Positions 8,583 to 25,801 of a DNA stretch of 64,000 nucleotides are shown piece after piece. Under the pieces are notes generated by a model. It saw only the letters and a list, made by a program, of their open reading frames with translations, did not search any database and was not told the origin of the DNA. Made by a program: the position numbers and the translations under genes. Numbering within the stretch: position 1 is the first letter of the stretch; each line of letters starts with the position of its first letter. Source of the DNA: Amoebophrya sp. A120 (lineage: Eukaryota > Protista > Dinoflagellata); the NCBI GenBank assembly GCA_905178155.1, contig CAJINV010000002.1, positions 434,376-498,375 of the forward strand, read 5' to 3'.

Positions 8583-11396
8583 ATCTGGATTTGTGTTTTT
8601 GAAATTGAAAGGTTGGAGTCCGCTTCTTCTGAATATAGTAGTGGCTGCTCGATAGTTCTTCTTGTACCGCTACGACCGGGCTCTCTGGGTCGTTGATCAG
8701 TACCGCGACGAGGCAGTCGCAGTGGCTGGATTCCTGATGATGTTATTTCTTCAATACTTCACAAGGACTCAGCGAAGAGTCGGCTGCGTCAATATCCCTT
8801 GTTATTTCATCATCCGTGTTGTACTGCTATAGCGTTCTTTTTCGCTCCGGACGACACAGATGCGTAGCCTTCTTCGCAACATGTTGGAGCTGAAACACTG
8901 GGGGATGAAGTGCTGCCGGTCCACCTTCCTCGATGTTGAATTGGGCCTTCAAATCCAGCCTATGTAAAGATGAAGATGTCTGCTATGGTGTTCCTTTACC
9001 TCGTCTTGGTTCTTTCTCGTTGCTACTGCGAGCAGTGTGCAACAAGACCGGCGGGGAGAGAATGTCTTGTAAAGTTTGTCAGAAAAAGTTCAGGCCCTAC
9101 TTGTTCGAGATGTAGTTTTATTTCTTGCTTGCGGAAAAAGAAAAACAGAGTCGGGATCAAAATTGTGGTCCCCTAGGCCCGAGGTGAGTCTTTGCGAAAC
9201 CTTGACGCCAAGGCGAGATGACTCCTTCGTGCGGCTAGGAATACCACTTTCAGGCTACGAGCGGACAATCGTTTGATGAAAGGGCACAACAGCTCCTCAC
9301 TTCTTGTACACGTATGTCCAGCCGATTAGAGCACGACAAAGAAGCGTCTTACTGATGTACTTGCTAAAACGTGTACGTGTGAAAGGCCGGCGGAGCCTTT
9401 CCTGGTCTAATTCCTAGAAAAGTTATGTAGAGATGAAATTGCTTTTATGCTTGTTCAGCATCAAGCAGATCTGTTTCTACCACAACGCCTGTCCTTTCTC
9501 GTCTTAACAATGTTTATTTTCAGTCGAGTGGTAACAAACTCGCAATTTAGCATGAAAGCCAGGTACTAGGGTCAAGAATGCGTAAACTAATCAGAGAAAG
9601 AAAAAAAGAACCACCCCCGTGCGCGGTGAACGTGAACCACAACCATATCATAGTGACATCGAATGAGCTGCGCCGAGATCCAGATCTGCGTTTGTAGTGA
9701 CCAACACAAAATAAATGCCGCACAAAATTGATCCGCTTTCGCTTGATGATAATGAAGAGCCACTAAAAATGATGCTGGCGACATACTGATCGTCTTCACG
9801 CTGCACGAAAATAAGTACTCTACCAAATCTCAACTACCCACTGCAGCACAGACCGCCCTAGCTACACCACCATTTATCACAGACACCTCCAGGGAAGTTT
9901 CTTTTATCTATCAATCGCACGGCGGGCATAATACACACATCATCCACACGGCAACTGTTCTATAGTCCCACATCTGGTTAGAGGAAAAGATCCTTCGTTC
10001 CGTGGTCATTTTGTGTGTCGCAATTACTTCTTACAAGAATCAGATGAAAACAATAACGCACGGATCGTATCGCAGTATAGTAAGAGTAGATCTTGATCAT
10101 GATCCTCCATCCTGCTGCGCGCGGCGGTATTATTTGTAGTGACCGTATGAGTTTGCCTCTTGATCTTCAACCTCGCCGGTGGCTCAAAGGGCCGCCACTG
10201 TCCCTAGAAAAACTCAATTGCTTGTGGTTCGTGTCAACAATATTACGCACCACACGAAGCACGACTTTTTTCTGCCACTGATAGAAGAGTTGTAAACATA
10301 AGTCATCTCCTGATGTGTGAAGGGCCCGTGTCGCGGCTTAGCAAATAGAAAGTCCAACTTCGTCCTCCGCTATGTTCCCAACGACTGTTTTTTCTTGTCA
10401 AGAAATTATCTGCAAAACCTTAAAAGCACAGGTCGAAACAATCAGAAAGTCAACAGATCATGAACCTTTGCGTTTAAGCACAGAAAACTGAGAGAAGTAC
10501 AGCGGCTTTCGTACTATGTTCTTCCGTAAAATTCTATGTCAAGAAAACCAAAACATTTTCATCTCCGGTATTACTATTAATTCGCTATGCATCTTACATG
10601 TAGTGCGAGTTGTGCCACAATCTTTTTTCCTGCAACAGCTCAAGTCTAAAAAATAGAGTAATCGGCTCCAGGAATGATCCGTGCAAACAGAAATACAGCA
10701 AAAGCAAAATTAATATAGACAAGATTTCGACATCAAAGAAGAAGAACTACTACACTACAAGGCACATCAGTAGGAGTTTTCTCAGTATCGTGTTGACAAC
10801 ATCACGAGCTAGTGCAGCTATGATATTTTTACGCCGAAGAAGTAGCTTCGTGCCCACTTGGAAGAGAACGAGGAGCGCCTTCAACTTCAGTTGCATATCG
10901 CTACAACTCAAGTATGCAGCATCACGATGTTTGTGCCTACACGGATGAAAAAGTCAAGAAGAAGAGGCAAAGTGATCAATTTGCATAGACCCCGCCCGCC
11001 TTCTCGAATAAATTTTATCACTCGTGCGCCTAACAAGAAAGCACGTTCGAGAGAATATGTGTTAGTGCAACCAGAATGATAGACAAATTCGAGACAAAAA
11101 AGAGAGGACTTCTGTGGTCGCACGTACTATGAAAGGGCACAACAGCGCCAGCGAGGAACCATTTTTCTATCGACGCCTAATTTACAACTTTCAACAAGAA
11201 AGATGTGAATAGCAGTAGCTGCTTTAAGCAAAACCTCGCTTTTTACGACAAGCGTTTAAATTCGTAGTAGAAAAGGAAACAACACAATCAAAAAATGGAA
11301 TATCCTTCAAGATTTGCAAACAGACATGTAGAGCGCTTCAAGACCACACGGTTGGAAACTTTATCCTTTTTTTTGCAAACGTTAACAGACGACTTT

Positions 11397-12170
11397 CATC
11401 AAAGCGAATGCAAAGCCGAAATCTTGTACTAATACTAATTCTGTGTGGTGCAAAATTATAGTAGCTACCTCTGGATAAGCACAAAAACGTAAAATATTCC
11501 AGCTGTTCGTGCTCCCTGCTTGTTCTATCAAAAGCCTATACAAGGTGTTTGATATGAGACGAAATCGTTGTGTTTCTTGGCACGGGAAGACGAGGTCGTA
11601 GACGTGCTAGGAATGATCAACGCGAAAAACAAAATGAGAAGATGCATCGAAAGACCAATTTCATGTTGACACGCTGCCTTGCGGATCTTCGCTCAAGATG
11701 ATGCGAAACACAAAGAGCTTCAAACTTCTGATCTAGTTGTACTTCAAGACACGCTGCACGCTGCCTTTTCGGAACAAGTACAAGACGAAGTTGGAAACAG
11801 AAAAAATAATAAGTAAAAAACACACGAAAGCTTCGAAGCAGCTGCCGCACGGGGTAGCAGTACTTGTGAACAAGAAGAATTTTTCTTTTAGTTTTACGCG
11901 ATTAAATATACTTGCTGCCGGTGCGAAGAACACTTCAACTTCATCTTGTTCAGCAAGGCAGATGAACAAGTAGAGCAGCTGCTTTCAAAACAGGAGCTTC
12001 TGAAGATGATGAAGATCCTCGGTTTGTTGCAAGAAAGCTTTGCTCGACTTTTATCTGTGATGGCTGAACAAGCCTGCTCGGCAACGGCAAGAAACGGAAA
12101 AAATAATTTTGGTGATGGTGTAGTTCTAGTTCAACATCATAGTAAGCGCCACAAGTTCATCACGCATCAA
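11397..12170. repeat. Segmental repeat copy 1 (downstream region of coiled-coil gene)
   Basis: Near-identical to ~23326-24075 and ~25028-25730; the ORF track shows the same spurious ORFs three times. Confidence 0.9.
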
Positions 12171-15100
12171 TGGCACAGTTTGCTCGCATATGAACTGCAA
12201 AAGTATCGTACTAGTAGTAATTGCAATACAAATTAGCTCAGCATGACAAATGGAATTTGTCATGCTGTTTTGCCTTGGGGTGGAGATTTGTAATGCATGA
12301 TTGCAATTACTACGAGTACGATACTTTTGCACAGGATATCGCAACAGTTTCTGCTTCAACTCCGTTTCCAAATTGTCGCAATTTTGGTTCTATGAACTGC
12401 AAAAGTATCGTACTAGTATAAATCGCATGACAAAAAATTTCCTCAGAATGGAAAATGGAGTTTGTCATGCTGATTTACCTTGGGAACCTCCAGATTTGTC
12501 ATGCATATCTGCGATTAGTACGGTTACGATGCTTTTGCATTTGATAGGTTCTCCAGTTTTTCTCTTTCCAATTTCTTTTCCCTTTCCAATTCGGAAATTC
12601 TCTCCCGTTCTTGTTTCTCCCGAGCTGTTTCCTCTTGCAGTTCCAACTGCTTTATGCATTGCAAATATGTCTGGGTCTGGAAACTTGTAATGCTGCGTTG
12701 GGAATTATAGTGAGTGCTCTGTAATGCGCAGCCAAGCATGAGAAATATCTGCGTTTCGTTGTGTTGCGTTTTTCGCATGACAAACTGCGTTTTCGCATGA
12801 CAGACAAAAGGGTCTCTTCTTGGACACGCATCACAAACTTTTTGGTCATCCCAGACAAGCATGACAAATCGCGCAATCTTCCAGACCCAGACATTTTTGC
12901 ATTTGATATGCTTTTTATACACTCGTGCCTTCTCCGCCTGAATTTGCAGCAACAACTTCTCCCGAATCCGGCCGAATTTCTGTTGCAGCAGTTGCAGCTC
13001 GGTGTTTGCATTCTCCTCTTCGACTTCCTCCTTTTCGTCCTGATCGATCGTTCGCGGGTCGCGGGTGAGCAGCTGTTTTTTTTTATTTTCATTTGCACAT
13101 TTGTGCCATGCATGACAAATTCAGTTTTTATTGCAAATTTCTGCATGACAGATCAACACATCTTCATCCTCGCTTCAATTTTTCTACCTTGTCCTTGAAA
13201 TTCCCCACTTCCTCTTCCAATTCAGCCTTATGAACTGCAAAAGTATCGTATTCGTATAAATGTAATTACAAATTTCTTCAGCATGAGATAATAAAATTTG
13301 TAATGCTGATTGACCTTAGGAGAAACATTTGTAATGCATGACTGCAATTACTACGAGTAGGATACTTTTGCACAGGATAAGCCTTCTCGGTTTCCATTTC
13401 CTTCAAAATCCCCTTGTATTCCTTGATCTTCTCACTCCTTCGCCTCTCCAACGTGAGCAATTTCTGTTCCTCCTTAAACAGTATGAAATGCAATAGAACT
13501 AACGTACTAGGTAGTACAAATCGCATTACACTGCTTGCATCTACAGCATTTCAAGTGTGTTTATTTATTCATCGTCTTATCTTCATCTTCATCGTCATCT
13601 TGTGGATCGTCGTATTGGAACAAAGGGAAAACCCGTCGGAGAGCGAAAAACCTCAGCGCATATCGCTGGAAAATGTTCGTTTCATATTTTTCAATTTTTC
13701 GTTTTTCACATGAGAATTTTGAGAGCATCTAGTAACGGTTCAAAAAACAGCACGGCGAGATTATGAAAGTCCAAAAATTGTTCTTGCTGTTGCACCCTAC
13801 CGCGACGTACTTTGAGCGGTGCTTCTCGACTCTATGTTCCTGCATCGATGAAGAGATTTTTGCTTTCAAAAATTGAAGAAGTTACGACATTGGGGTCGTC
13901 GGGTTTGAAGATGTTTGTAGTGTGTTTGCGAAAAGTTGCGAAGTGTGCGCCAAGTTGCCGATCTAGCATTACAAATTCGCAAGATCGTCTTCATCTTCAT
14001 CATCTTCATCTCTTCTTCTTCTTTTGATTTCAACGAAAATAAAATAACCATCTTGTCGACAACATCACTTGCATTGCAACATCAAACGTCACAAGCTTCT
14101 GCACGTTACCATCTGCGTGCGTAAAACTTCCAAGACCACTCGCAGATCAGATCAACATCAAACCACTACTCGCGTGTACAGCCGTGCTACGAACAACATC
14201 CGCGTCGGGAAAGTGCAAAAAGCTCCGGGGGTTGAATCGCTGCCCACACTTGCCGGGGAGGTTATATCGCTTGCATGAACATCGTGTTTTACAATCTCAA
14301 ACAAACCCCACTCAGGGCGGTGAGATCGGCAGGTGGTTGAGGTTTCTCCGGAAGCAGGCCCGGATATACCGCGCCCGATCCCCCTGGTTCGCAGGCCACT
14401 GCTGCCCGTTGTTGTCGTTCTGCACTGCTGCGTTTTTCCGGTCGTCGTGGATGCGGCCGAGGATGGTAGTCAGACGCGCCACAGTGAGGGTTTGGAGCTT
14501 CTCCACGATGCTGTCGTTCCCCGCCGCGGCGAAATGGGAGTCGTTTCGCGCCGCAGGAGACATAATCGAGAAAATCCATCCTTTCTGGTAGTCATCGTCC
14601 ACATTCCCGGCACCCCAGTGCACGTCAACGCCGTCAATCCGCTGCACGATGGGTGCGCCGTTGATACCTGCTTGGGGGGCAGGCTGTAGGTTTTGGTTTG
14701 CGGCGGGGGCTCCACCAGCACCACCTCCTGCTGCGCCACCTCCTGCGCCAACACCTCCTGCTCCAAAACCTCCTGCTCCACCACCTCCTGCTCCACCACC
14801 TGCGCCTCCGGCAACACCTGCACCTCCACCAGCCCCTCCACCAGCGAATCCCTGTTGTTGCTGAAACGGGCCTTGTTGCTGGAAAGGAGCTTGCTGCTGG
14901 AACGGGCCTTGTTGCTGGAACGGGGGCTGTTGCTGGAAGGGAAATTGTTGCTGAAACGGAGCGGCTTGTTGCTGGAACGGAACTTGTTGTTGGAAAGGAC
15001 CAGGTTGCGGGAACTGCTGCTGGAGAGGAAACTGCTGTTGCTGGTTGTACTGCGGGAAGGGTTGGTTTTGGTACTGGGCGGGGTACTGCGGAACGGGTTG

Positions 15101-18100
15101 ATTTTGGTATTGGGCATGGGGGTGCATCATGTTGTGATTGTGCATGTAGTTCGGCATCATGTGTTGATTCGGGTTCTGGTAGTACATCTGGGCGTTGGGG
15201 GGTCCAAACTGTGCCGGCATGTTTGCATAATTCGGGACACCCTGGCTGAACATCATCGTGTTGATCTGCTGCTGCTGGTTCTGTTGTTGCTGTTGCATCT
15301 GCTGCAACAGCCTTAGCACCTCGGAACTTTCTTCCTTCTCTTTGTTCGCAACAACATCGGGTTTGTTCAGACCATAGACTGACGCCAGACCGTCCGAAAT
15401 CGCCTTCCCCATGTACACCCCCTTCCGCTCTTCCGCTTCCCGCGCCTTCTTCTCCTGCTCCTTTTCTTTGGCTTCGCGGACCAACCGCTCAAGCTCAAGA
15501 ATGCGACACTCCTCACGCACGTGTTCGTCGCGTCCCTTGCCGGGCTTCAGGAGTTCGTGGTCTTTCGGTGCCATCTTGGATCTCAGTCGTGCGTCGTTGT
15601 TGTTTGCGTTGTTCTTTTTGTTACGATGTGGAAGAAGATAGTCTAGCTCATAAGTTGCCTCAAAGGTTTTTGGTGCTACTACGCATGCCTTGATCAATGC
15701 GATTAGGAGGTTGAAAACTCGAGACCGTTCAAACAAAACCTTGCGGCTGCATCGGATTATTGTCAAAATTGTCTGTAGTCGAAAGCCTCGCTGTTGCCAC
15801 TGTTTCAGATCGTGAAAGACATGGAGGGCCGTCAATACATCTGTGGAACTCATTCGCTTGGGATCTTCTGTGTCATCGGTGTTTTTCTTTTGGAGGAATT
15901 TGGCAGTGATTGCTTGCGCGATGTTGTTGAACCTGCTGAAGAAAACTGAGCGGTAGTACTCTACGTCGGTCATGTCCCGAAACCGCGCGCCTAGCGGCTT
16001 AAGGACTGGCCTCGTGCTTACTTCGACACGTGACCCGGGCCCCGTGCTCTCTATGTCTGTGGCAAGGTTTAGCCACCTCATTGACAGCGGTATTGCCTTG
16101 CTGCGGATCATTCTGTCGTCGCTCGTTGCTTGCTCCAGGATTCTGTCGACTTCTACTTCTACCCCGTCGTAGATGTCCTCGACAATTTCGGCGAGGCAGG
16201 GTCGGCAGAAGCAGGTCGTTAAGTTCGCGGAATCATCGACGAAACGCTCCATCGCTAACTCGCTCGGCTTTACTTTCCCGGTTCGGAAGGCGTGGTCCTC
16301 TGCTGCTGTCATCGCGACGGAGCAGGCAGCTTTGGACGGTATCCCGCCGATCGGTGTGCCCTTTTCCGGGTCCTGTCGCAGAACCAAGGCGCTGCCGAGT
16401 GTGCTGAATCTCAGCGCTGTGATGTTGAACAGTAAAAATTCCAAGTTCTCCGCTTCTTCGTGTTCGCACCTTGGTAGCGTCTTGATGTAATCAATTCTGT
16501 CGCGCATCAGCTGGACCCTGACACGCTCGAAAAAGACTACGGCATCGACTACCAGGCCCGTGGCGTCCGGTTTCTCTGTTCCACACCGCACGCACTTGCC
16601 TGTGCACTTTTTCAACTTTTGCGCCTTTGCCTGGAACGAACTTGCCGCCTCGGTCAGCGAGCAATTCTCTTTGCCTTTCGTCAGCACCTTCTTCAGCGTC
16701 TTCTCCACTTGCTGCACGCACTTGCGCTGCGTCGCCCGGTTTCGTCCTGTGATGGCCCGCACCTGGGAAACTATTTTGCGAAAAAGTTTCTCCTCCGGCA
16801 CATCTTTGAAAATGACGGCGCTGTCGTTCTGCACCACCAAGTTCTTGCCCTTCGGCAGGATGTACACGTAGGCCAGTTGCGTCATCTCCCCGAGTTTGTG
16901 TTCCTTCCGTCGCCCCTCGGCACTGTTCCACTGCTGGATCAAGCTGTTTACCGCTTTCAGCGCTTCCGCCTCTGTCATCGGCACGACTTCAAGATTTTTC
17001 TCGCGGAGGATAATCCGGCAACACATTTGCTGGTAGAGATACCTGTCGACGAAAAGACCCAACTCTTTCCACTTGTCCACCTGCACCAACACCCGCCCCG
17101 CTTGTAACTGTTTCTGTGCGTGCTCTTCTGCTTCTCGCAGCGGGTGCGCTTCTTGCTCTCGCCTGTACTGCTTCCGGCTCTGCTTTACTTGCACTCGCTT
17201 GTTGCATGCTCTCTGCAACAGCCGCGTTTGCGTTGCTACGTGCTTCACGGACTCCGGTCCGGGTGGTAGTGGGTCGGTCAGATCAAACGGGGCCGCTTCC
17301 ATTTTTACCTCCTTGAAGTTCACTGCTTGGCTTACGCTGGTGATCGCCTTGGCCGCGCCTACTGCTGTTCGCGTGTAGTAGCGCATCCGTGGGGCCATTA
17401 CCCTTCGCAGCGTGATCTTCTCGGCCAGGTATGTGCGGATTCGTGGGCGTGATTCCGCCAGGATTGCGCCCCGGACCTTTGCGAGCTCCTGTCGCTCCCA
17501 GCGGTACCGCCACACTGCTACAATGCAGGCGCGACTTGGTGCGCCCCTGCTGTTCAGCAGTATGTTGACTTTGCTGCGTGCGCGGAGCTTTTCCTTGCCC
17601 AGCACGATGCTGCCGCCCTCGACTATCTCCCGCAGGTCGTACTCTGGGAACTCGCTGCGTCGGTGGAGAAGGAAGAGGAGCCGCACCACCTTCGTGTACT
17701 TCATGCCCAAAAACTTTGCGAGCAAGAAGTAGTTCGGCTGTGCGTAGATGTTGAGCGGGCCCTCCGTTCGTCTCTCCGTTTGCGTTTTCGTGTACAGCTC
17801 GTGGTAGCTGCTTGCTGTGTCGTCTTTGCTCCGGAACTTCTGTTCGTAGTACTGGAGAAGCCAGGTTGTCGCCGGCCCTTCCAGTTCTACGCGTCTCTGC
17901 CACTGCGGGGGGCGCCGTCGTTGTCGTGTTTTTGCTTTTTGTTCTGTCGCCCGGCTTCCCGCGGTAAGCCTCTCTAGCCACTCCGACTCGTCGCGGCCTT
18001 CTTCTTCTGTCCCGCCTTCGCCTTTTTCGTAGATGCCCGTCTTGTTTAGTGGCGGCTGGAAGATTCTTACAAGGGCGGCCTCCGTCTTCCGCGCGTCCCT

Positions 18101-20063
18101 TACGTCAGCGCAGATTCTGATGGCCAGGATGCAGACAATGGCGCGCCGGTACTTTTCCGGCTTCCACCCTGACTGCCTCGTGCCCCGCTGGTGTTCTTCG
18201 AAACGGCGCCGGAGGTCATCGGTTGACCCGATGTAGTAGCTGCCACAGTGGTCCCAATATGCGTAGACCACGCCGTGTAGCTTCTGCAGTTTGCGGTCTT
18301 TCTGCTCTTGTTTTTCTTGCCTGTTTTTCTCGGACACGTGCCGCGCTGCCTCCTGCAATTGCTCAAAGAAGGGGAATTCCGAAGGGTCGAACAGCTTCGA
18401 GTATTCCCGCAGCCTTTTGTTGATCTTCTTCGCCCACTGTGCTCGCTTCCATGGCTTTGCGCCAATCTGTCCCGCAGCAGCTCCGAGTACTTTTATGCGA
18501 TCGATTGCTGTCTGCTGTCCTTGTTCTAGTGAAAGCGGCATTTCTTCCGCGACGGTTTCCACTGCGTTGTAGATGGTGAAGGTGGAGAAGATGGCGAATA
18601 CGTAGAAGAAGAAGACGCGGGTGGCAGTCGGTCGGCTTCTGCTCCGTTGCCCACGACTTTTTACTTCTGTCTCCGTGCTTCTACTTGTTTGTTTTTGTTG
18701 CTGCATTTTTGTCGAGGTATTTCTAACCCGGCACGCCGTTCAGTTCCTTGCTGGATCCGCGGAAGGTGTCGGCGTACTACTCTGCTTGCATCTACAGCAT
18801 TTCAAGTGTGTTTATTTATTCATCGTCTTATCTTCATCTTCATCGTCATCTTGTGGATCGTCGTATTGGAACAAAGGGAAAACCCGTCGGAGAGCGAAAA
18901 ACCTCAGCGCATATCGCTGGAAAATGTTCGTTTCATATTTTTCAATTTTTCGTTTTTCACATGAGAATTTTGAGAGCATCTAGTAACGGTTCATTACAAT
19001 TTTTTCAGCGTGACGAATGACACCTGTAATGCTGATTCACCTGGGGAAATAGATTTGTCATGCACGCCTGCGATTAGTAGGAGTACGATGTTTTTGCATT
19101 AGATAAACAGCGTCAAGTCCAACGTTCCGTTCAGCGCCGTCCACGATTTCGAATTTTTCAGCGTATCCTGTGCAAAAGTATCGCACTCGTACTAATCGCA
19201 GTCATGCATTACAAATCTTTTTCTTGAGGTAGATCCGCATTACAAATTCAATTTGTATTGCTGGGCTAATTTGTATTGCAATTTATACGTAGTACGATGC
19301 TTATTTTGCGGTGCATACACCGTTTCCTTCGCTAGTTTCTCCTTCCAAAAAGCGATTTCTTTCACTATTTTCTCATTCTCCTGCTTCATGATCGCTACCG
19401 CCTGCTTCCGGTTGTTGTATGCATTGCAAAATTACAGTATCGCACTCGTATAAATGCATTACAAATTTCCTCAGCATGAGAGTTCAAATTTGTAAGGCGG
19501 ATTTGCCTTAACAAAGAGATTTGTAATGCATGATTGCAATACGAGTACGATACTTTTCCACAGGATATGTTGTCTTCTTTGTCCATGTCGAGTTCCAGTT
19601 GCTTCAGGTCCTGTTGCGCGTTTGTCACCTGGCGGGTCTTCTCTCCGAGTAACGCGAAGGATTTGGAGACCAGAGACCACTTGGCCAAAACGAAGTTTTC
19701 GGCTTTGCTGTTTGTTGCGGAAGCGGTGGCTTCCCGCGATTCGGTGATGGCGTCAATGTCGATTTGACGGTTTTGCTGTTGTATGCATTGCAAAAGCATC
19801 GTACTAGTATAAAATGCATTGCAAATTTTTTTAAGAAAAACAATTTGTCATGCTATTTCAGGTAGAAAGTTGGATTTGTCATGGTGCATATCTGCAATTA
19901 GTACGAGTACGATACTTTTGCACAGGATATGTTGTAAAGTAGATTCGGTCGTGGAGCTGGCTGTTGCGGTGGCTGTTTGCGAAATAGCTTTCGCGAAAAA
20001 CAGAAAGTGGGATGAGCAAAGAGCCGCTACGGTGGGAAAAAACACCGCCATCTTTTTCGTCAT
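12160..20063 (-). CDS. Putative secreted coiled-coil protein (signal peptide, E/K/Q/L-rich)
   Basis: MTKKMAVFFPTVAALCSSHFLFFAKA... to ...KQKLLRANCAIDA*. Frame restored by removing 8 introners (one containing the 5.46-kb retroelement) and a probable GT-AG intron at ~13073-13187. Confidence 0.78.
12189..12338. mobile_element. Introner family B (TIR core TGCAAAAGTATCGTACT)
   Basis: TSD TCGCA; empty site visible in paralogous copies (~24090 and ~25745: tttgctcgcaccagtttc). Confidence 0.93.
12391..12546. mobile_element. Introner family B
   Basis: TSD GGTTC. Confidence 0.92.
12653..12908. mobile_element. Introner family A
   Basis: TSD TGCTT; empty site caactgctttttat at ~24241 and ~22671. Confidence 0.93.
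13229..13379. mobile_element. Introner family B
   Basis: TSD AGCCT. Confidence 0.92.
13531..13742 (-). repeat. 3' terminal direct repeat (pseudo-LTR) of retroelement
   Basis: Appears identical to 18782-18993; AATAAATAAA about 30 nt from its 3' end on the minus strand. Confidence 0.93.
14312..18706 (-). CDS. GIY-YIG endonuclease - reverse transcriptase polyprotein with C-terminal Q/P/F- and Gly-rich region
   Basis: GVVYAYWDHCGSYYIGSTDDLRRRFEEH...E...LN (GIY-YIG); RT motifs VVDAVVFFE, GTPIGGIPS, RFVDD; intronless 1464 aa. Confidence 0.88.
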   Translation of the reverse strand: MQQQKQTSRSTETEVKSRGQRSRSRPTATRVFFFYVFAIFSTFTIYNAVETVAEEMPLSLEQGQQTAIDRIKVLGAAAGQIGAKPWKRAQWAKKINKRLREYSKLFDPSEFPFFEQLQEAARHVSEKNRQEKQEQKDRKLQKLHGVVYAYWDHCGSYYIGSTDDLRRRFEEHQRGTRQSGWKPEKYRRAIVCILAIRICADVRDARKTEAALVRIFQPPLNKTGIYEKGEGGTEEEGRDESEWLERLTAGSRATEQKAKTRQRRRPPQWQRRVELEGPATTWLLQYYEQKFRSKDDTASSYHELYTKTQTERRTEGPLNIYAQPNYFLLAKFLGMKYTKVVRLLFLLHRRSEFPEYDLREIVEGGSIVLGKEKLRARSKVNILLNSRGAPSRACIVAVWRYRWERQELAKVRGAILAESRPRIRTYLAEKITLRRVMAPRMRYYTRTAVGAAKAITSVSQAVNFKEVKMEAAPFDLTDPLPPGPESVKHVATQTRLLQRACNKRVQVKQSRKQYRREQEAHPLREAEEHAQKQLQAGRVLVQVDKWKELGLFVDRYLYQQMCCRIILREKNLEVVPMTEAEALKAVNSLIQQWNSAEGRRKEHKLGEMTQLAYVYILPKGKNLVVQNDSAVIFKDVPEEKLFRKIVSQVRAITGRNRATQRKCVQQVEKTLKKVLTKGKENCSLTEAASSFQAKAQKLKKCTGKCVRCGTEKPDATGLVVDAVVFFERVRVQLMRDRIDYIKTLPRCEHEEAENLEFLLFNITALRFSTLGSALVLRQDPEKGTPIGGIPSKAACSVAMTAAEDHAFRTGKVKPSELAMERFVDDSANLTTCFCRPCLAEIVEDIYDGVEVEVDRILEQATSDDRMIRSKAIPLSMRWLNLATDIESTGPGSRVEVSTRPVLKPLGARFRDMTDVEYYRSVFFSRFNNIAQAITAKFLQKKNTDDTEDPKRMSSTDVLTALHVFHDLKQWQQRGFRLQTILTIIRCSRKVLFERSRVFNLLIALIKACVVAPKTFEATYELDYLLPHRNKKNNANNNDARLRSKMAPKDHELLKPGKGRDEHVREECRILELERLVREAKEKEQEKKAREAEERKGVYMGKAISDGLASVYGLNKPDVVANKEKEESSEVLRLLQQMQQQQQNQQQQINTMMFSQGVPNYANMPAQFGPPNAQMYYQNPNQHMMPNYMHNHNMMHPHAQYQNQPVPQYPAQYQNQPFPQYNQQQQFPLQQQFPQPGPFQQQVPFQQQAAPFQQQFPFQQQPPFQQQGPFQQQAPFQQQGPFQQQQGFAGGGAGGGAGVAGGAGGGAGGGGAGGFGAGGVGAGGGAAGGGAGGAPAANQNLQPAPQAGINGAPIVQRIDGVDVHWGAGNVDDDYQKGWIFSIMSPAARNDSHFAAAGNDSIVEKLQTLTVARLTTILGRIHDDRKNAAVQNDNNGQQWPANQGDRARYIRACFRRNLNHLPISPP
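18782..18993 (-). repeat. 5' terminal direct repeat (pseudo-LTR) of retroelement
   Basis: Copy of 13531-13742. Confidence 0.93.
19164..19317. mobile_element. Introner family B
   Basis: TSD CAGCG/CACCG (1 mismatch). Confidence 0.88.
19418..19567. mobile_element. Introner family B
   Basis: TSD TGTTG. Confidence 0.92.
19782..19929. mobile_element. Introner family B
   Basis: TSD TGTTG. Confidence 0.92.
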
Positions 20064-23045: not shown

Positions 23046-24275
23046 TTTGCATTCTCCTCTTCGACTTCTTCCTACAAATAACTACTACACTACAAGCTAC
23101 AGTACGAGTTTTAGTTTTCCCTATCGTGTTGACCACATCACGAGCTAGTGTAAGTAACTATGTATGATACGCCGAAGAAGAAGCCCCGTGCTGCCCACTT
23201 GGAAGAGGACGAGGAGCGCCTTGGCAGCTTCATTTACATATCGCTACTTGCACAACGTCATGATGTTTGTACCTACACGGATGATGAAAAAGTCAAGAAG
23301 AAGAGGTAAATTGAGCAATTTATTGCATCAAAGCGAATGCAAAGCCGAAATCTTGTACTAATATTAATTCTGTGTGGTGCAAAATTATAGTAGCTACCTC
23401 TGGATAAGCACAAAAACGTAAAATATTCCAGCTGTTCGTGCTCCCTGCTTGTTCTATCAAAAGCCTATACAAGGTGTTTGATATGAGCCGAAATCGGTGT
23501 GTTTCTTGGCACGGGAAGACGAGGTCGTAGACGTGCTAGGAATGATCAACGCGAAAAACAAAATGAGAAGATGCATCGAAAGACCAATTTCATGTTGACA
23601 CGCTGCCTTGCGGATCTTCGCTCAAGATGATGCGAAACACAAAGAGCTTTAAACTTCTGATCTAGTTGTACTTCAAGACACGCTGCACGCTGCCTTTTCG
23701 GAACAAGTACAAGACGAAGTTGGAAACAGAAAAAATAATAAGTAAAAAACACACGAAAGCTTCGAAGCAGCTGCCGCACGGGGTAGCAGTACTTGTGAAC
23801 AAGAAGAATTTTTCTTTTAGTTTTACGCGATTAAATATACTTGCTGCCGGTGCGAAGAACACTTCAACTTCATCTTGTTTAGCAAGGCGGATGAACAAAT
23901 AGAACTGCTTTCAAAATACACAGGAGCTTCTGAAGATGATGAAGATCCTCGGTTTGTTGCAAGAAAGCTTTGCTCGACTTTTATCTGTGATGGCTGAAGC
24001 CTGCTCGGCAAGAATGGAAAAAAGAATTTTTGTAAAAATGGTGTTCGTCATAGTTGTACCACATCGATTTCACGCATCGATCGCACAGTTTGCTCGCACC
24101 AGTTTCTGCCTCAACTCCGTTTCTAAATTGTCGCAATTTTGGTCTTTCTCGAGTTTTTCTCTTTCCAACTTCTTCTCCCTTTCCAATTCGGAAATTCTCT
24201 CCCGTTCTTGTTTCTCCCGTGCTGTTTTCTCTTGCAGTTCCAACTGCTTTTTATACACTCGTCCCTTCTCCGCCT

Positions 24276-24622: not shown

Positions 24623-25801
24623 CTGGCCTTTTTGTCGCGATAAAGGCCGGTTCAGTTCTTGCGCTTGTTGTACTACCGCAGGGCCAATTTTTCCGTTGTC
24701 GTGCGAGGCGGGCGTGCTGTAGTTTATAGAAAAGAGTGCTGACTGGTGTGGTCATTCGCTTCTTCACTACATTAATACAGCTCTAGAAGTTGTACCAGTG
24801 CTGCTCAGTGGACGACTTGTTTCTGAAGCCAATTTATGCCCGCCTCAAGCAGCTATATCAAACTTGAAGGTACATATAATCTTGAAGCAAAATAACAGTA
24901 GCTGGCACCAAACTTTGTATCTATCTTTGAAGCAAAATAACAGTACATATAATGTGTGAAGCACCAAATAATTGAGGCTCAAAAGTGGTCCACCTAGAGA
25001 AGGCGGGTGTTGTCAAATGATTTTGCACTAATTCTGTGTGGTGCAAAATTATAGTAGCTACCTCTGGATAAGCACAAAAACGTAAAATATTCCAGCTGTT
25101 CGTGCTCCCTGCTTGTTCTATCAAAAGCCTATACAAGGTGTTTGATATGAGCCGAAATCGGTGTGTTTCTTGGCACGGGAAGACGAGGTCGTAGACGTGT
25201 TAGGAATGATCAACGCGAAAAACAAAATGAGAAGATGCATCGAAAGACCAATTTCATGTTGACACGCTGCCTTGCGGATCTTCGCTCAAGATGATGCGAA
25301 ACACAAAGAGCTTTAAACTTCTGATCTAGTTGTACTTCAAGACACGCTGCACGCTGCCTTTTCGGAACAAGTACAAGACGAAGTTGGAAACAGAAAAAAT
25401 AATAAGTAAAAAACACACGAAAGCTTCGAAGCAGCTGCCGCACGGGGTAGCAGTACTTGTGAACAAGAAGAATTTTTCTTTTACGCGATTTAAATATATT
25501 TTCTGCCGCCCGTGCGAAGAACACTTCAACTTCATCTTGTTTCTCAAGGCGGATGAACAAATAGCACTGCCTGAAAAACAGCACAGGAGCTTCTGAAGAT
25601 GATGAAGATTCTCGCTTTGTTGCAGACTCCGCGCGACTTTTATGTGTGATGGCTGAAGCCTGCTCGGCAAGAAACGGAAAAAAAAATTCGGTGATGGTGT
25701 TCATCATCGTTGCGCCACATCAAGTTCACGCATCAATGGCACAGTTTGCTCGCACCAGTTTCTGCTTCAACTCCATCTCCAAATTGTCGCAATTTTGGTT
25801 C

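Follow-up and report, generated by a model that had tools for sequence, protein, structure and literature searches.

The window analysed here, 64,000 nucleotides (nt) of Amoebophrya sp. A120 (contig CAJINV010000002.1, positions 434,376 to 498,375), carries on its complementary strand a 5,463-bp retroelement (13531..18993) that is likely a member of a Penelope-like element (PLE) clade of parasitic dinoflagellates not described before. Its layout is ordinary for PLEs, and it is the clade that appears new. On sequence comparison, the family made up of this element and its relatives lies outside both the Naiad/Chlamys-type and the canonical reference clades that we used, in keeping with the first-pass annotation, which had proposed a new dinoflagellate PLE lineage. 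We found no prior description of a PLE from dinoflagellates in the literature searched, which excluded Repbase, Dfam and most subscription papers. No mention of PLEs occurs in the accessible portions of four dinoflagellate papers, supplements excluded (PMC7789003, PMC12005148, PMC11453091, PMC12130899), and the accessible main text of the 2021 survey of nuclease-bearing PLEs mentions no dinoflagellate, alveolate, Amoebophrya, Symbiodinium or Perkinsus (PMC8557442).

Repeat and flank analysis delimits the element by two direct repeats of 212 bp that are 100% identical (5' repeat, 18782..18993; 3' repeat, 13531..13742, with AATAAA 39 nt before its own 3' end), flanked by TTACA at 13526-13530 and 18994-18998. 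The perfect repeats and 5-bp target duplication reported in the first-pass annotation are thus both present, and the duplication can alternatively be read as 7 bp (CATTACA, 13524..13530 and 18992..18998), in which case two of its bases, the CA of the right copy, are shared with the end of the repeat. Between the repeats lie a 3' untranslated region (UTR) of 569 nt (13743..14311) and one open reading frame (ORF, 14312..18706) that runs over 1,464 amino acids (aa) with neither stop nor frameshift, and which may in fact begin at a Met further along. The identity of the repeats and the lack of breaks in the ORF suggest that this young-looking, intact element was inserted recently; by blastn and tblastn it is present as a single copy within the window. 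As the first-pass annotation had remarked, the bases after the 5' repeat (AGTAGTACG..) bear no resemblance to a primer-binding site and those before the 3' repeat (..GCTGTTTTT) none to a polypurine tract; no tRNA genes were found in the window. The first 50 codons (18562-18706) hold a pyrimidine-rich run that ends in CAG at ~18562, a possible 3' splice site for an intron near the 5' end such as Penelope has; in that case the Met at codon 56 may be the start.

Read depth in the contigs of run X1, which is possibly the window's own source and therefore checks the assembly without being independent of it, was 41 for the body and 71 for the contig bearing the repeat, and the left junction was present in its own contig. 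With 182 words at double and 68 at single depth, our own arithmetic gives an expected depth of ~71, so that the depths fit one body with two repeats. Two RNA runs, X4 and X5, gave one and two partial reads, respectively, all on the flanking host repeat only, and are thus uninformative on expression of the element. Other run X1 contigs share parts of it: a 47-nt stretch of the 3' UTR (13781-13828) is 96-100% alike in at least two of them, which then diverge, and may be a cis-acting signal or mark a short non-autonomous partner, while the 3' end of the ORF (14330-14750) has matches of ~88-90%, possibly truncated sister copies or non-autonomous derivatives; the core of the reverse transcriptase (RT) has no such matches. 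Neither the 47-nt stretch nor the repeats folded better than shuffled sequences (z -1 to +2).

All of the ORF motifs that the first-pass annotation had quoted were found, namely GVVY..YYIG..RRRFEEH at aa 145-172, CVRC at 705-708, VVDAVVFFE (D721), GTPIGG at 783-788, RFVDD at 821-825 and CRPC at 834-837. The N-terminal GIY-YIG endonuclease (aa 145-221; 18044..18274, complementary strand, as for all features of the ORF) carries R168, H172, E209 and N221 and has no CCHH zinc finger; Pfam PF01541 matches aa 145-217 at E 1.4e-5, above the cut-off, alongside a weak match to T5orf172. An R/K-rich block follows at aa 257-272 (17891..17938), seen in each of the eight alignment rows that extend over it. 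Motifs A (D721), B (GTPIGG) and C (RFVDD) of the RT occupy 16232..16546, and since 62 aa separate A from B, the window protein has no IFD insertion. A CxxC stands before motif A (C705, C708; 16583..16594) and another after motif C (C834, C837; 16196..16207), each a predicted pair of metal ligands. In RTs generally the start of the motif A strand adjoins the end of the motif C hairpin, so that all four cysteines could contribute to a single zinc site. The C-terminal extension (~aa 1040-1464; 14315..15589) comprises a charged, coiled-coil-like stretch, Q/P-rich repeats, a G/A-rich run and a short terminal region; a SAP-like domain suspected there by eye was rejected, as the last 115 aa match no relative significantly. 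Protease, RNase H and integrase gave no Pfam match at E up to 10 and no NCBIfam match, which agrees with the absences recorded earlier.

The GIY-YIG and RT folds put forward for checking in the first-pass annotation were both recovered, the former by the Pfam match and the latter by modelling, and a profile of 14 family sequences matches GIY-YIG structures (UvrC, UPF0213) as well as RT structures. An AlphaFold2 (AF2) model built from 21 sequences, covering aa 315-1000 of the 1,464 (15707..17764), reached pLDDT 82.7 and pTM 0.71, and shows an N-terminal helical part, the DK motif (D544-K545), and RT fingers, palm and thumb; a single-sequence fold reached pLDDT 36 and a single-sequence search of PDB returned no matches. 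Foldseek ranks 1-17 were telomerase throughout (E 4e-9 to 4e-6), and VIA-align likewise placed telomerase first (Z 16.8, root-mean-square deviation 4.6, 334 aligned residues), ahead of R2 (12.9) and group II RT (12.2). The RT is accordingly modelled, as a prediction, to resemble telomerase most. Among mobile elements, telomerase has its nearest relatives in the RTs of PLEs; as no PLE RT was among the structure matches, the top rank of telomerase would fit any PLE. A viral structure library returned generic RNA-dependent RNA polymerase palms only. Atlas neighbours of the window region and of one relative (P0020) were eukaryotic clusters, several with HTH_animal or RVT_1 (0.93-0.96), and are leads only.

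When 1.84 billion representatives were scanned in full with HMMER, 20 relatives at 24-42% identity were recovered, two of them from named Amoebophrya proteomes (P0010, P0012). This was the only protein search to find any; the word-index searches gave none among the ~8,000 candidates scored in each. One metagenome scan yielded four loci, two of which (L001 and L002) have both ends. The L003 protein is 31% identical to the window protein over 1,210 columns. Family scans of viral contigs and prokaryotic genomes found no relatives, and a viral motif scan gave two loci with long frames lacking RT motifs. Signature counts were made on the 13 members with a full RT core. DK is kept in all of them and aligns with the DK of the references, and each of the two CxxC pairs is present in 13/13, while neither occurs in 61 reference PLE frames (0/61, near-duplicates included). 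A C..C..H between RT1 and RT2 is found in 11 members and is lost in the window protein and P0002. The CxC that precedes DK in Naiad and Chlamys stands at the expected place in one member only, is not conserved, and is absent from the window protein within the 150 aa before DK. Motifs A and B are 58-71 aa apart in 11 members and 88 aa apart in two, and more than 400 aa follow motif C in nine. P0020, P0021 and P0023 form a sub-branch of their own (100/99) with an insertion of IFD size and no long C-terminal extension.

Reference PLEs came from prokaryotic genome records scanned with a PLE motif-B pattern. The 112 loci obtained (L007-L118) are mostly apparent eukaryotic PLE contaminants, some of them tandem arrays, and include the Chlamys-like L039, L082 and L060. 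Thirty-six were sorted by architecture into 18 Naiad/Chlamys-type loci, recognised by GIPMG, long A-to-B spacing and, in frames extending far enough, a nuclease at the N-terminus, and 18 canonical-type loci, the labels denoting layout and not name. With HHalign the family matched both sets at 99%, the Naiad/Chlamys-type set with E 9e-18 (score 143) and the canonical set with E 7e-16 (score 128), over ~360-376 columns from DK to the thumb. Our tree comprised 23 rows (seven family, eight Naiad/Chlamys-type, seven canonical and one group II outgroup), the other 27 of 50 having been omitted for shortness, for redundancy or to save time; the set included no TERT, Athena, Coprina or Hydra and no named Chlamys elements of green algae. 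Within that sampling, the family formed a clade (100/100, stem 1.79) separate from the Naiad/Chlamys-type (97/98) and canonical (92/95) clades, and the three groups came out again in a 37-row tree. How they branch relative to one another was less clear: the family joined the canonical group at 47/23, a sister position to the Naiad/Chlamys-type group had p 0.33 in the approximately unbiased (AU) test, and a position outside both had p 0.42. Grouping with the Chlamys-like trio was rejected (AU p 0.019) and with four Poseidon-like references weakly so (p 0.04); long branches limit all of these topology tests.

The ends of the complete copies suggest how the repeats should be understood. Direct repeats of 212 bp (100%) in the window, 314 bp (99.4%) in L001 and 428 bp (100%) in L002 end in TG..AG, GC..GT and CG..CA, respectively, with no common motif; a TG..CA pattern, considered as a signature of long terminal repeats (LTRs), was rejected, the relatives lacking it. 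The maximal target duplications are 7, 8 and 8 bp, in the same order, and overlap the 3' end of the repeat by 0, 3 and 7 nt and its 5' start by 2, 1 and 1; a 7-nt overlap has a chance of ~1e-4. In Adineta, PLEs have been described with pseudo-LTRs of 193-218 bp, direct-only forms, target duplications of 8-10 bp and microhomology at the junctions (PMC3846280), and pseudo-LTRs have been attributed to the insertion of partial tandems (PMC2377424). Judged from the sequences, pseudo-LTRs of the PLE kind are the best reading of the repeats, in preference to true LTRs, and our analysis of the ends suggests a pattern typical of integration primed at a nick with short pairing, matching the Adineta insertions. 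Of the unusual architecture claimed in the first-pass annotation, the domain order and the divergent RT stand, while LTR-like repeats with a target duplication are a known PLE layout (PMC3846280). Three other run X1 contigs and one in run X7 match the 3' end of the repeat from 13527, TACA included, and a 1,024-nt run X1 contig at double depth (80) has both repeat ends and runs on into the 3' UTR, compatible with a sister family that carries either a longer partial tandem or two truncated copies. This contig gives a hint of the variable repeat length that marks pseudo-LTRs.

The first-pass annotation had found no hammerhead core, and our searches agree. CTGANGA is absent, on either strand, from all seven repeat and UTR regions of the elements, the exact matches in the window falling in the ORF, so that no hammerhead with its core intact, be it canonical or scrambled, lies in these regions. 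Rfam found no ribozyme family in the window element, where six matches at E up to 5 lay far below gathering scores; nine matches in L001-L003 included none above gathering and none within an element.

Removing the element and one TTACA restores a 156-bp unit with inverted ends and AACAG on each side, an introner-type intron of the host (13482..19105 with the element inserted). Taking out this introner in turn joins the flanking exons, 19111..19163 upstream and 13385..13481 downstream on the complementary strand, in frame, and inverted ends with flanking repeats have been described for Amoebophrya introners (PMC7789003). The unit, its matching flanks and the in-frame exons thus place the retroelement inside an intron, in the orientation of the host gene. 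Across the junction, the reconstructed empty site can be aligned with further copies of a host repeat (~70% over ~340-410 bp), which makes this a true insertion. Together with the two homologues in named Amoebophrya proteomes, the introner layout points to a syndinian host of the Amoebophrya type.

Several observations weigh against membership in the PLEs or against the separateness of the clade. The two reference types align to each other with an HHalign score of 317, as compared with 128-143 to the family, and median scores of 88-116 bits between them fall to 9-33 bits to the family; given this large distance to both sets, the similarity that supports PLE membership is a remote one. The forms of motif A (DAxxFFE) and motif B (GxPIGG) depart from those of PLEs, and no conserved GxK[FY] was seen before DK in a nine-row alignment compared by eye with Fig. 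S4 of PMC8557442, whose legend gives this motif as general in PLEs. The best match of the family profile to an RT of solved structure is a group II maturase (E 4e-4), over motifs B-C only. Grouping of the family with L060 alone (p 0.06) or with a Neptune-like trio (p 0.058) was not rejected, and rapid evolution of proteins, as reported for Amoebophrya (PMC7789003), may account for the long stem of the family. At the ends, the window junction lacks an exact 3' overlap, the inverted segment and 30-40-bp tail common in PLEs were not seen in the three complete copies, and these complete insertions number three, one per family.

Two other placements may be considered. The family might be a deep branch of the telomerase/Penelope lineage outside the named PLE clades, with its own gain of GIY-YIG, a four-cysteine zinc site that clamps the palm and is not known from other PLE RTs, priming in which the RNA 3' end pairs with the nicked target much as telomerase aligns its template, and routine rebuilding of clean LTR-like repeats, with no integrase, RNase H or tRNA primer; we hold this only as a tentative possibility. 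It might instead be a fast-evolving offshoot of Naiad/Chlamys, a subgroup and not a new clade, in which CxC was lost, the IFD was lost in one branch and zinc sites were gained in the RT. This would explain the nuclease's N-terminal position, from which the first-pass annotation had drawn its link to that group, along with the R-rich block, DK without G, the lack of CCHH (as in Chlamys) and the lack of a canonical hammerhead. It also finds some favour in the 88-aa spacing of P0020, P0021 and P0023, near that of IFD-bearing references (81-92), in the slightly higher HHalign score, in the unrejected sister position, and in the top Atlas clusters, which are mostly streptophyte and chlorophyte on the 3-9 members with a record. 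We consider such an offshoot improbable, since CxC is not conserved in the family, the Naiad/Chlamys-type references are monophyletic without it, and nesting with the Chlamys-like trio is rejected. Of the kinship proposed earlier, the domain order thus holds, while the CxC motif is wanting and a sister position is at most compatible with the AU test. As CxC is not conserved, the element should not, on its sequence, be filed with Naiad/Chlamys despite sharing their domain order.

The separate PLE clade that we prefer also has to be set against readings in which the element is no PLE at all. In a true LTR-type element, the repeats would be rebuilt by strand transfer from a terminally redundant RNA with fixed ends, and GIY-YIG would have replaced the integrase. 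All three complete copies do have plain, direct, non-coding repeats (99.4-100%) with no inversion or tail, and the window repeat starts with TG and has its AATAAA near the 3' end. Nevertheless, we judge this very unlikely: primer-binding site, polypurine tract, RNase H and integrase were all not found, the ends differ among the three elements, the duplications overlap the repeat ends, and direct pseudo-LTRs of such size are known in PLEs (PMC3846280), as partial tandem products (PMC2377424). An assembly artefact, or a domesticated host gene with flanking repeats by chance, is harder still to credit. The element is indeed single-copy in the window and at single-copy depth in run X1, and a contig with the right-hand junction is not among the run X1 records listed; however, the site without the element is an ordinary 156-bp introner whose 5-bp flanks match and whose neighbouring exons join in frame, the left junction lies in its own contig, and two metagenome relatives share the layout.

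Compared with described systems, the element of this putative clade is most like Chlamys (PMC8557442) in its single ORF, GIY-YIG before RT without CCHH, R/H/E/N residues, R-rich block, DK, lack of a canonical hammerhead, protist host and, probably, pseudo-LTRs. It differs from Chlamys in having no CxC or GxKF/Y and, in the window's branch, no IFD; the family further differs in motif A (DAxxFFE) and motif B (GxPIGG), in the CxxC pairs around the palm, in the C..C..H of 11/13 members, in the long C-terminal extension, in the lack of a microsatellite target at the three sites seen, and in forming a clade apart from the Chlamys-like references used. Naiad (PMC8557442) shares the domain order, KR-rich block and, probably, pseudo-LTRs, and some Naiads also lack the IFD, but Naiads belong to animals and carry CCHH, CX2-5CxxC, CxC and DKA, all absent from the window element, and Naiad-type references have A-to-B spacings of mostly 81-92 aa as against 62. 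Canonical PLEs (Penelope/Poseidon, Neptune, Nematis) resemble it in ~200-bp direct repeats, which are pseudo-LTRs there and probably here too, 8-10-bp duplications, junction microhomology, low copy number, A-to-B spacing of ~60 aa and low-complexity inserts in the ORF, whereas their nuclease is C-terminal with CCHH, their motif is DKG and hammerheads are usual (PMC3846280, PMC2377424). In structure TERT matches best, and does so over part of the stretch preceding the RT core as well, but at 10-15% identity and a TM-score of 0.31-0.37 by query length, and it has no nuclease and is not mobile.

From the anatomy of the element and published work on Penelope (PMC2377424, PMC8557442), we infer a course of movement by target-primed reverse transcription, which is a prediction at every step. 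Transcription would start within the 5' repeat. The GIY-YIG endonuclease would nick the target DNA and the telomerase-like RT would extend the freed 3' end, with priming assisted by the RNA 3' end pairing to the target over a few bases. The RT would then jump to the 3' end of a template and copy 200-430 nt, giving an identical upstream repeat, and 1-2 bases of microhomology would serve to join the product to the target after this template jump. A second nick 7-8 bp away would create the target duplication, and the copy may have persisted by virtue of having landed in an intron.

Elsewhere in the window (2946-63640), two abundant families of introner-like units (~150 bp and ~255 bp) with inverted ends and 5-bp flanking repeats interrupt host genes; six of eight intervals tested had matching 5-bp flanks, and the boundaries of the other two were set by eye. 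A separate repeat of at least 300 bp, outside both main families, occurs in three copies (11394-11693, 23323-23622, 24987-25286; 99% and 90% identical). None of 21 host frames in the window matched Pfam. Among the metagenome relatives, L001 (6003-7664) is inserted in a GT-rich array of ~300-bp units beside a 20-bp tandem repeat, possibly subtelomeric. The ORF of L002 (7206-11162) has 14 in-frame stops (11 TAA/TAG, three TGA) with no frameshift and identical repeats, and is open when TAA/TAG are read as Gln and TGA as Trp, these residues matching relatives at two places by eye. The frame to its left is similarly stop-rich, and a 1,990-codon frame to its right has no such stops. This code has been reported for Amoebophrya ex Karlodinium (PMC6394959), and L002 is likely written in the reassigned-stop code of its own host.

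The element exemplifies a retroelement residing within an introner intron. The formation of pseudo-LTRs is described as an open question (PMC2377424, PMC8557442), and simple, intact, clean-ended copies such as these would lend themselves to studying in vitro how priming occurs and how the repeats form. A divergent alveolate clade would broaden the known range of PLEs with a nuclease by a group that the 2021 survey lacks (PMC8557442), and would add a taxon to the tree of PLEs and TERT.

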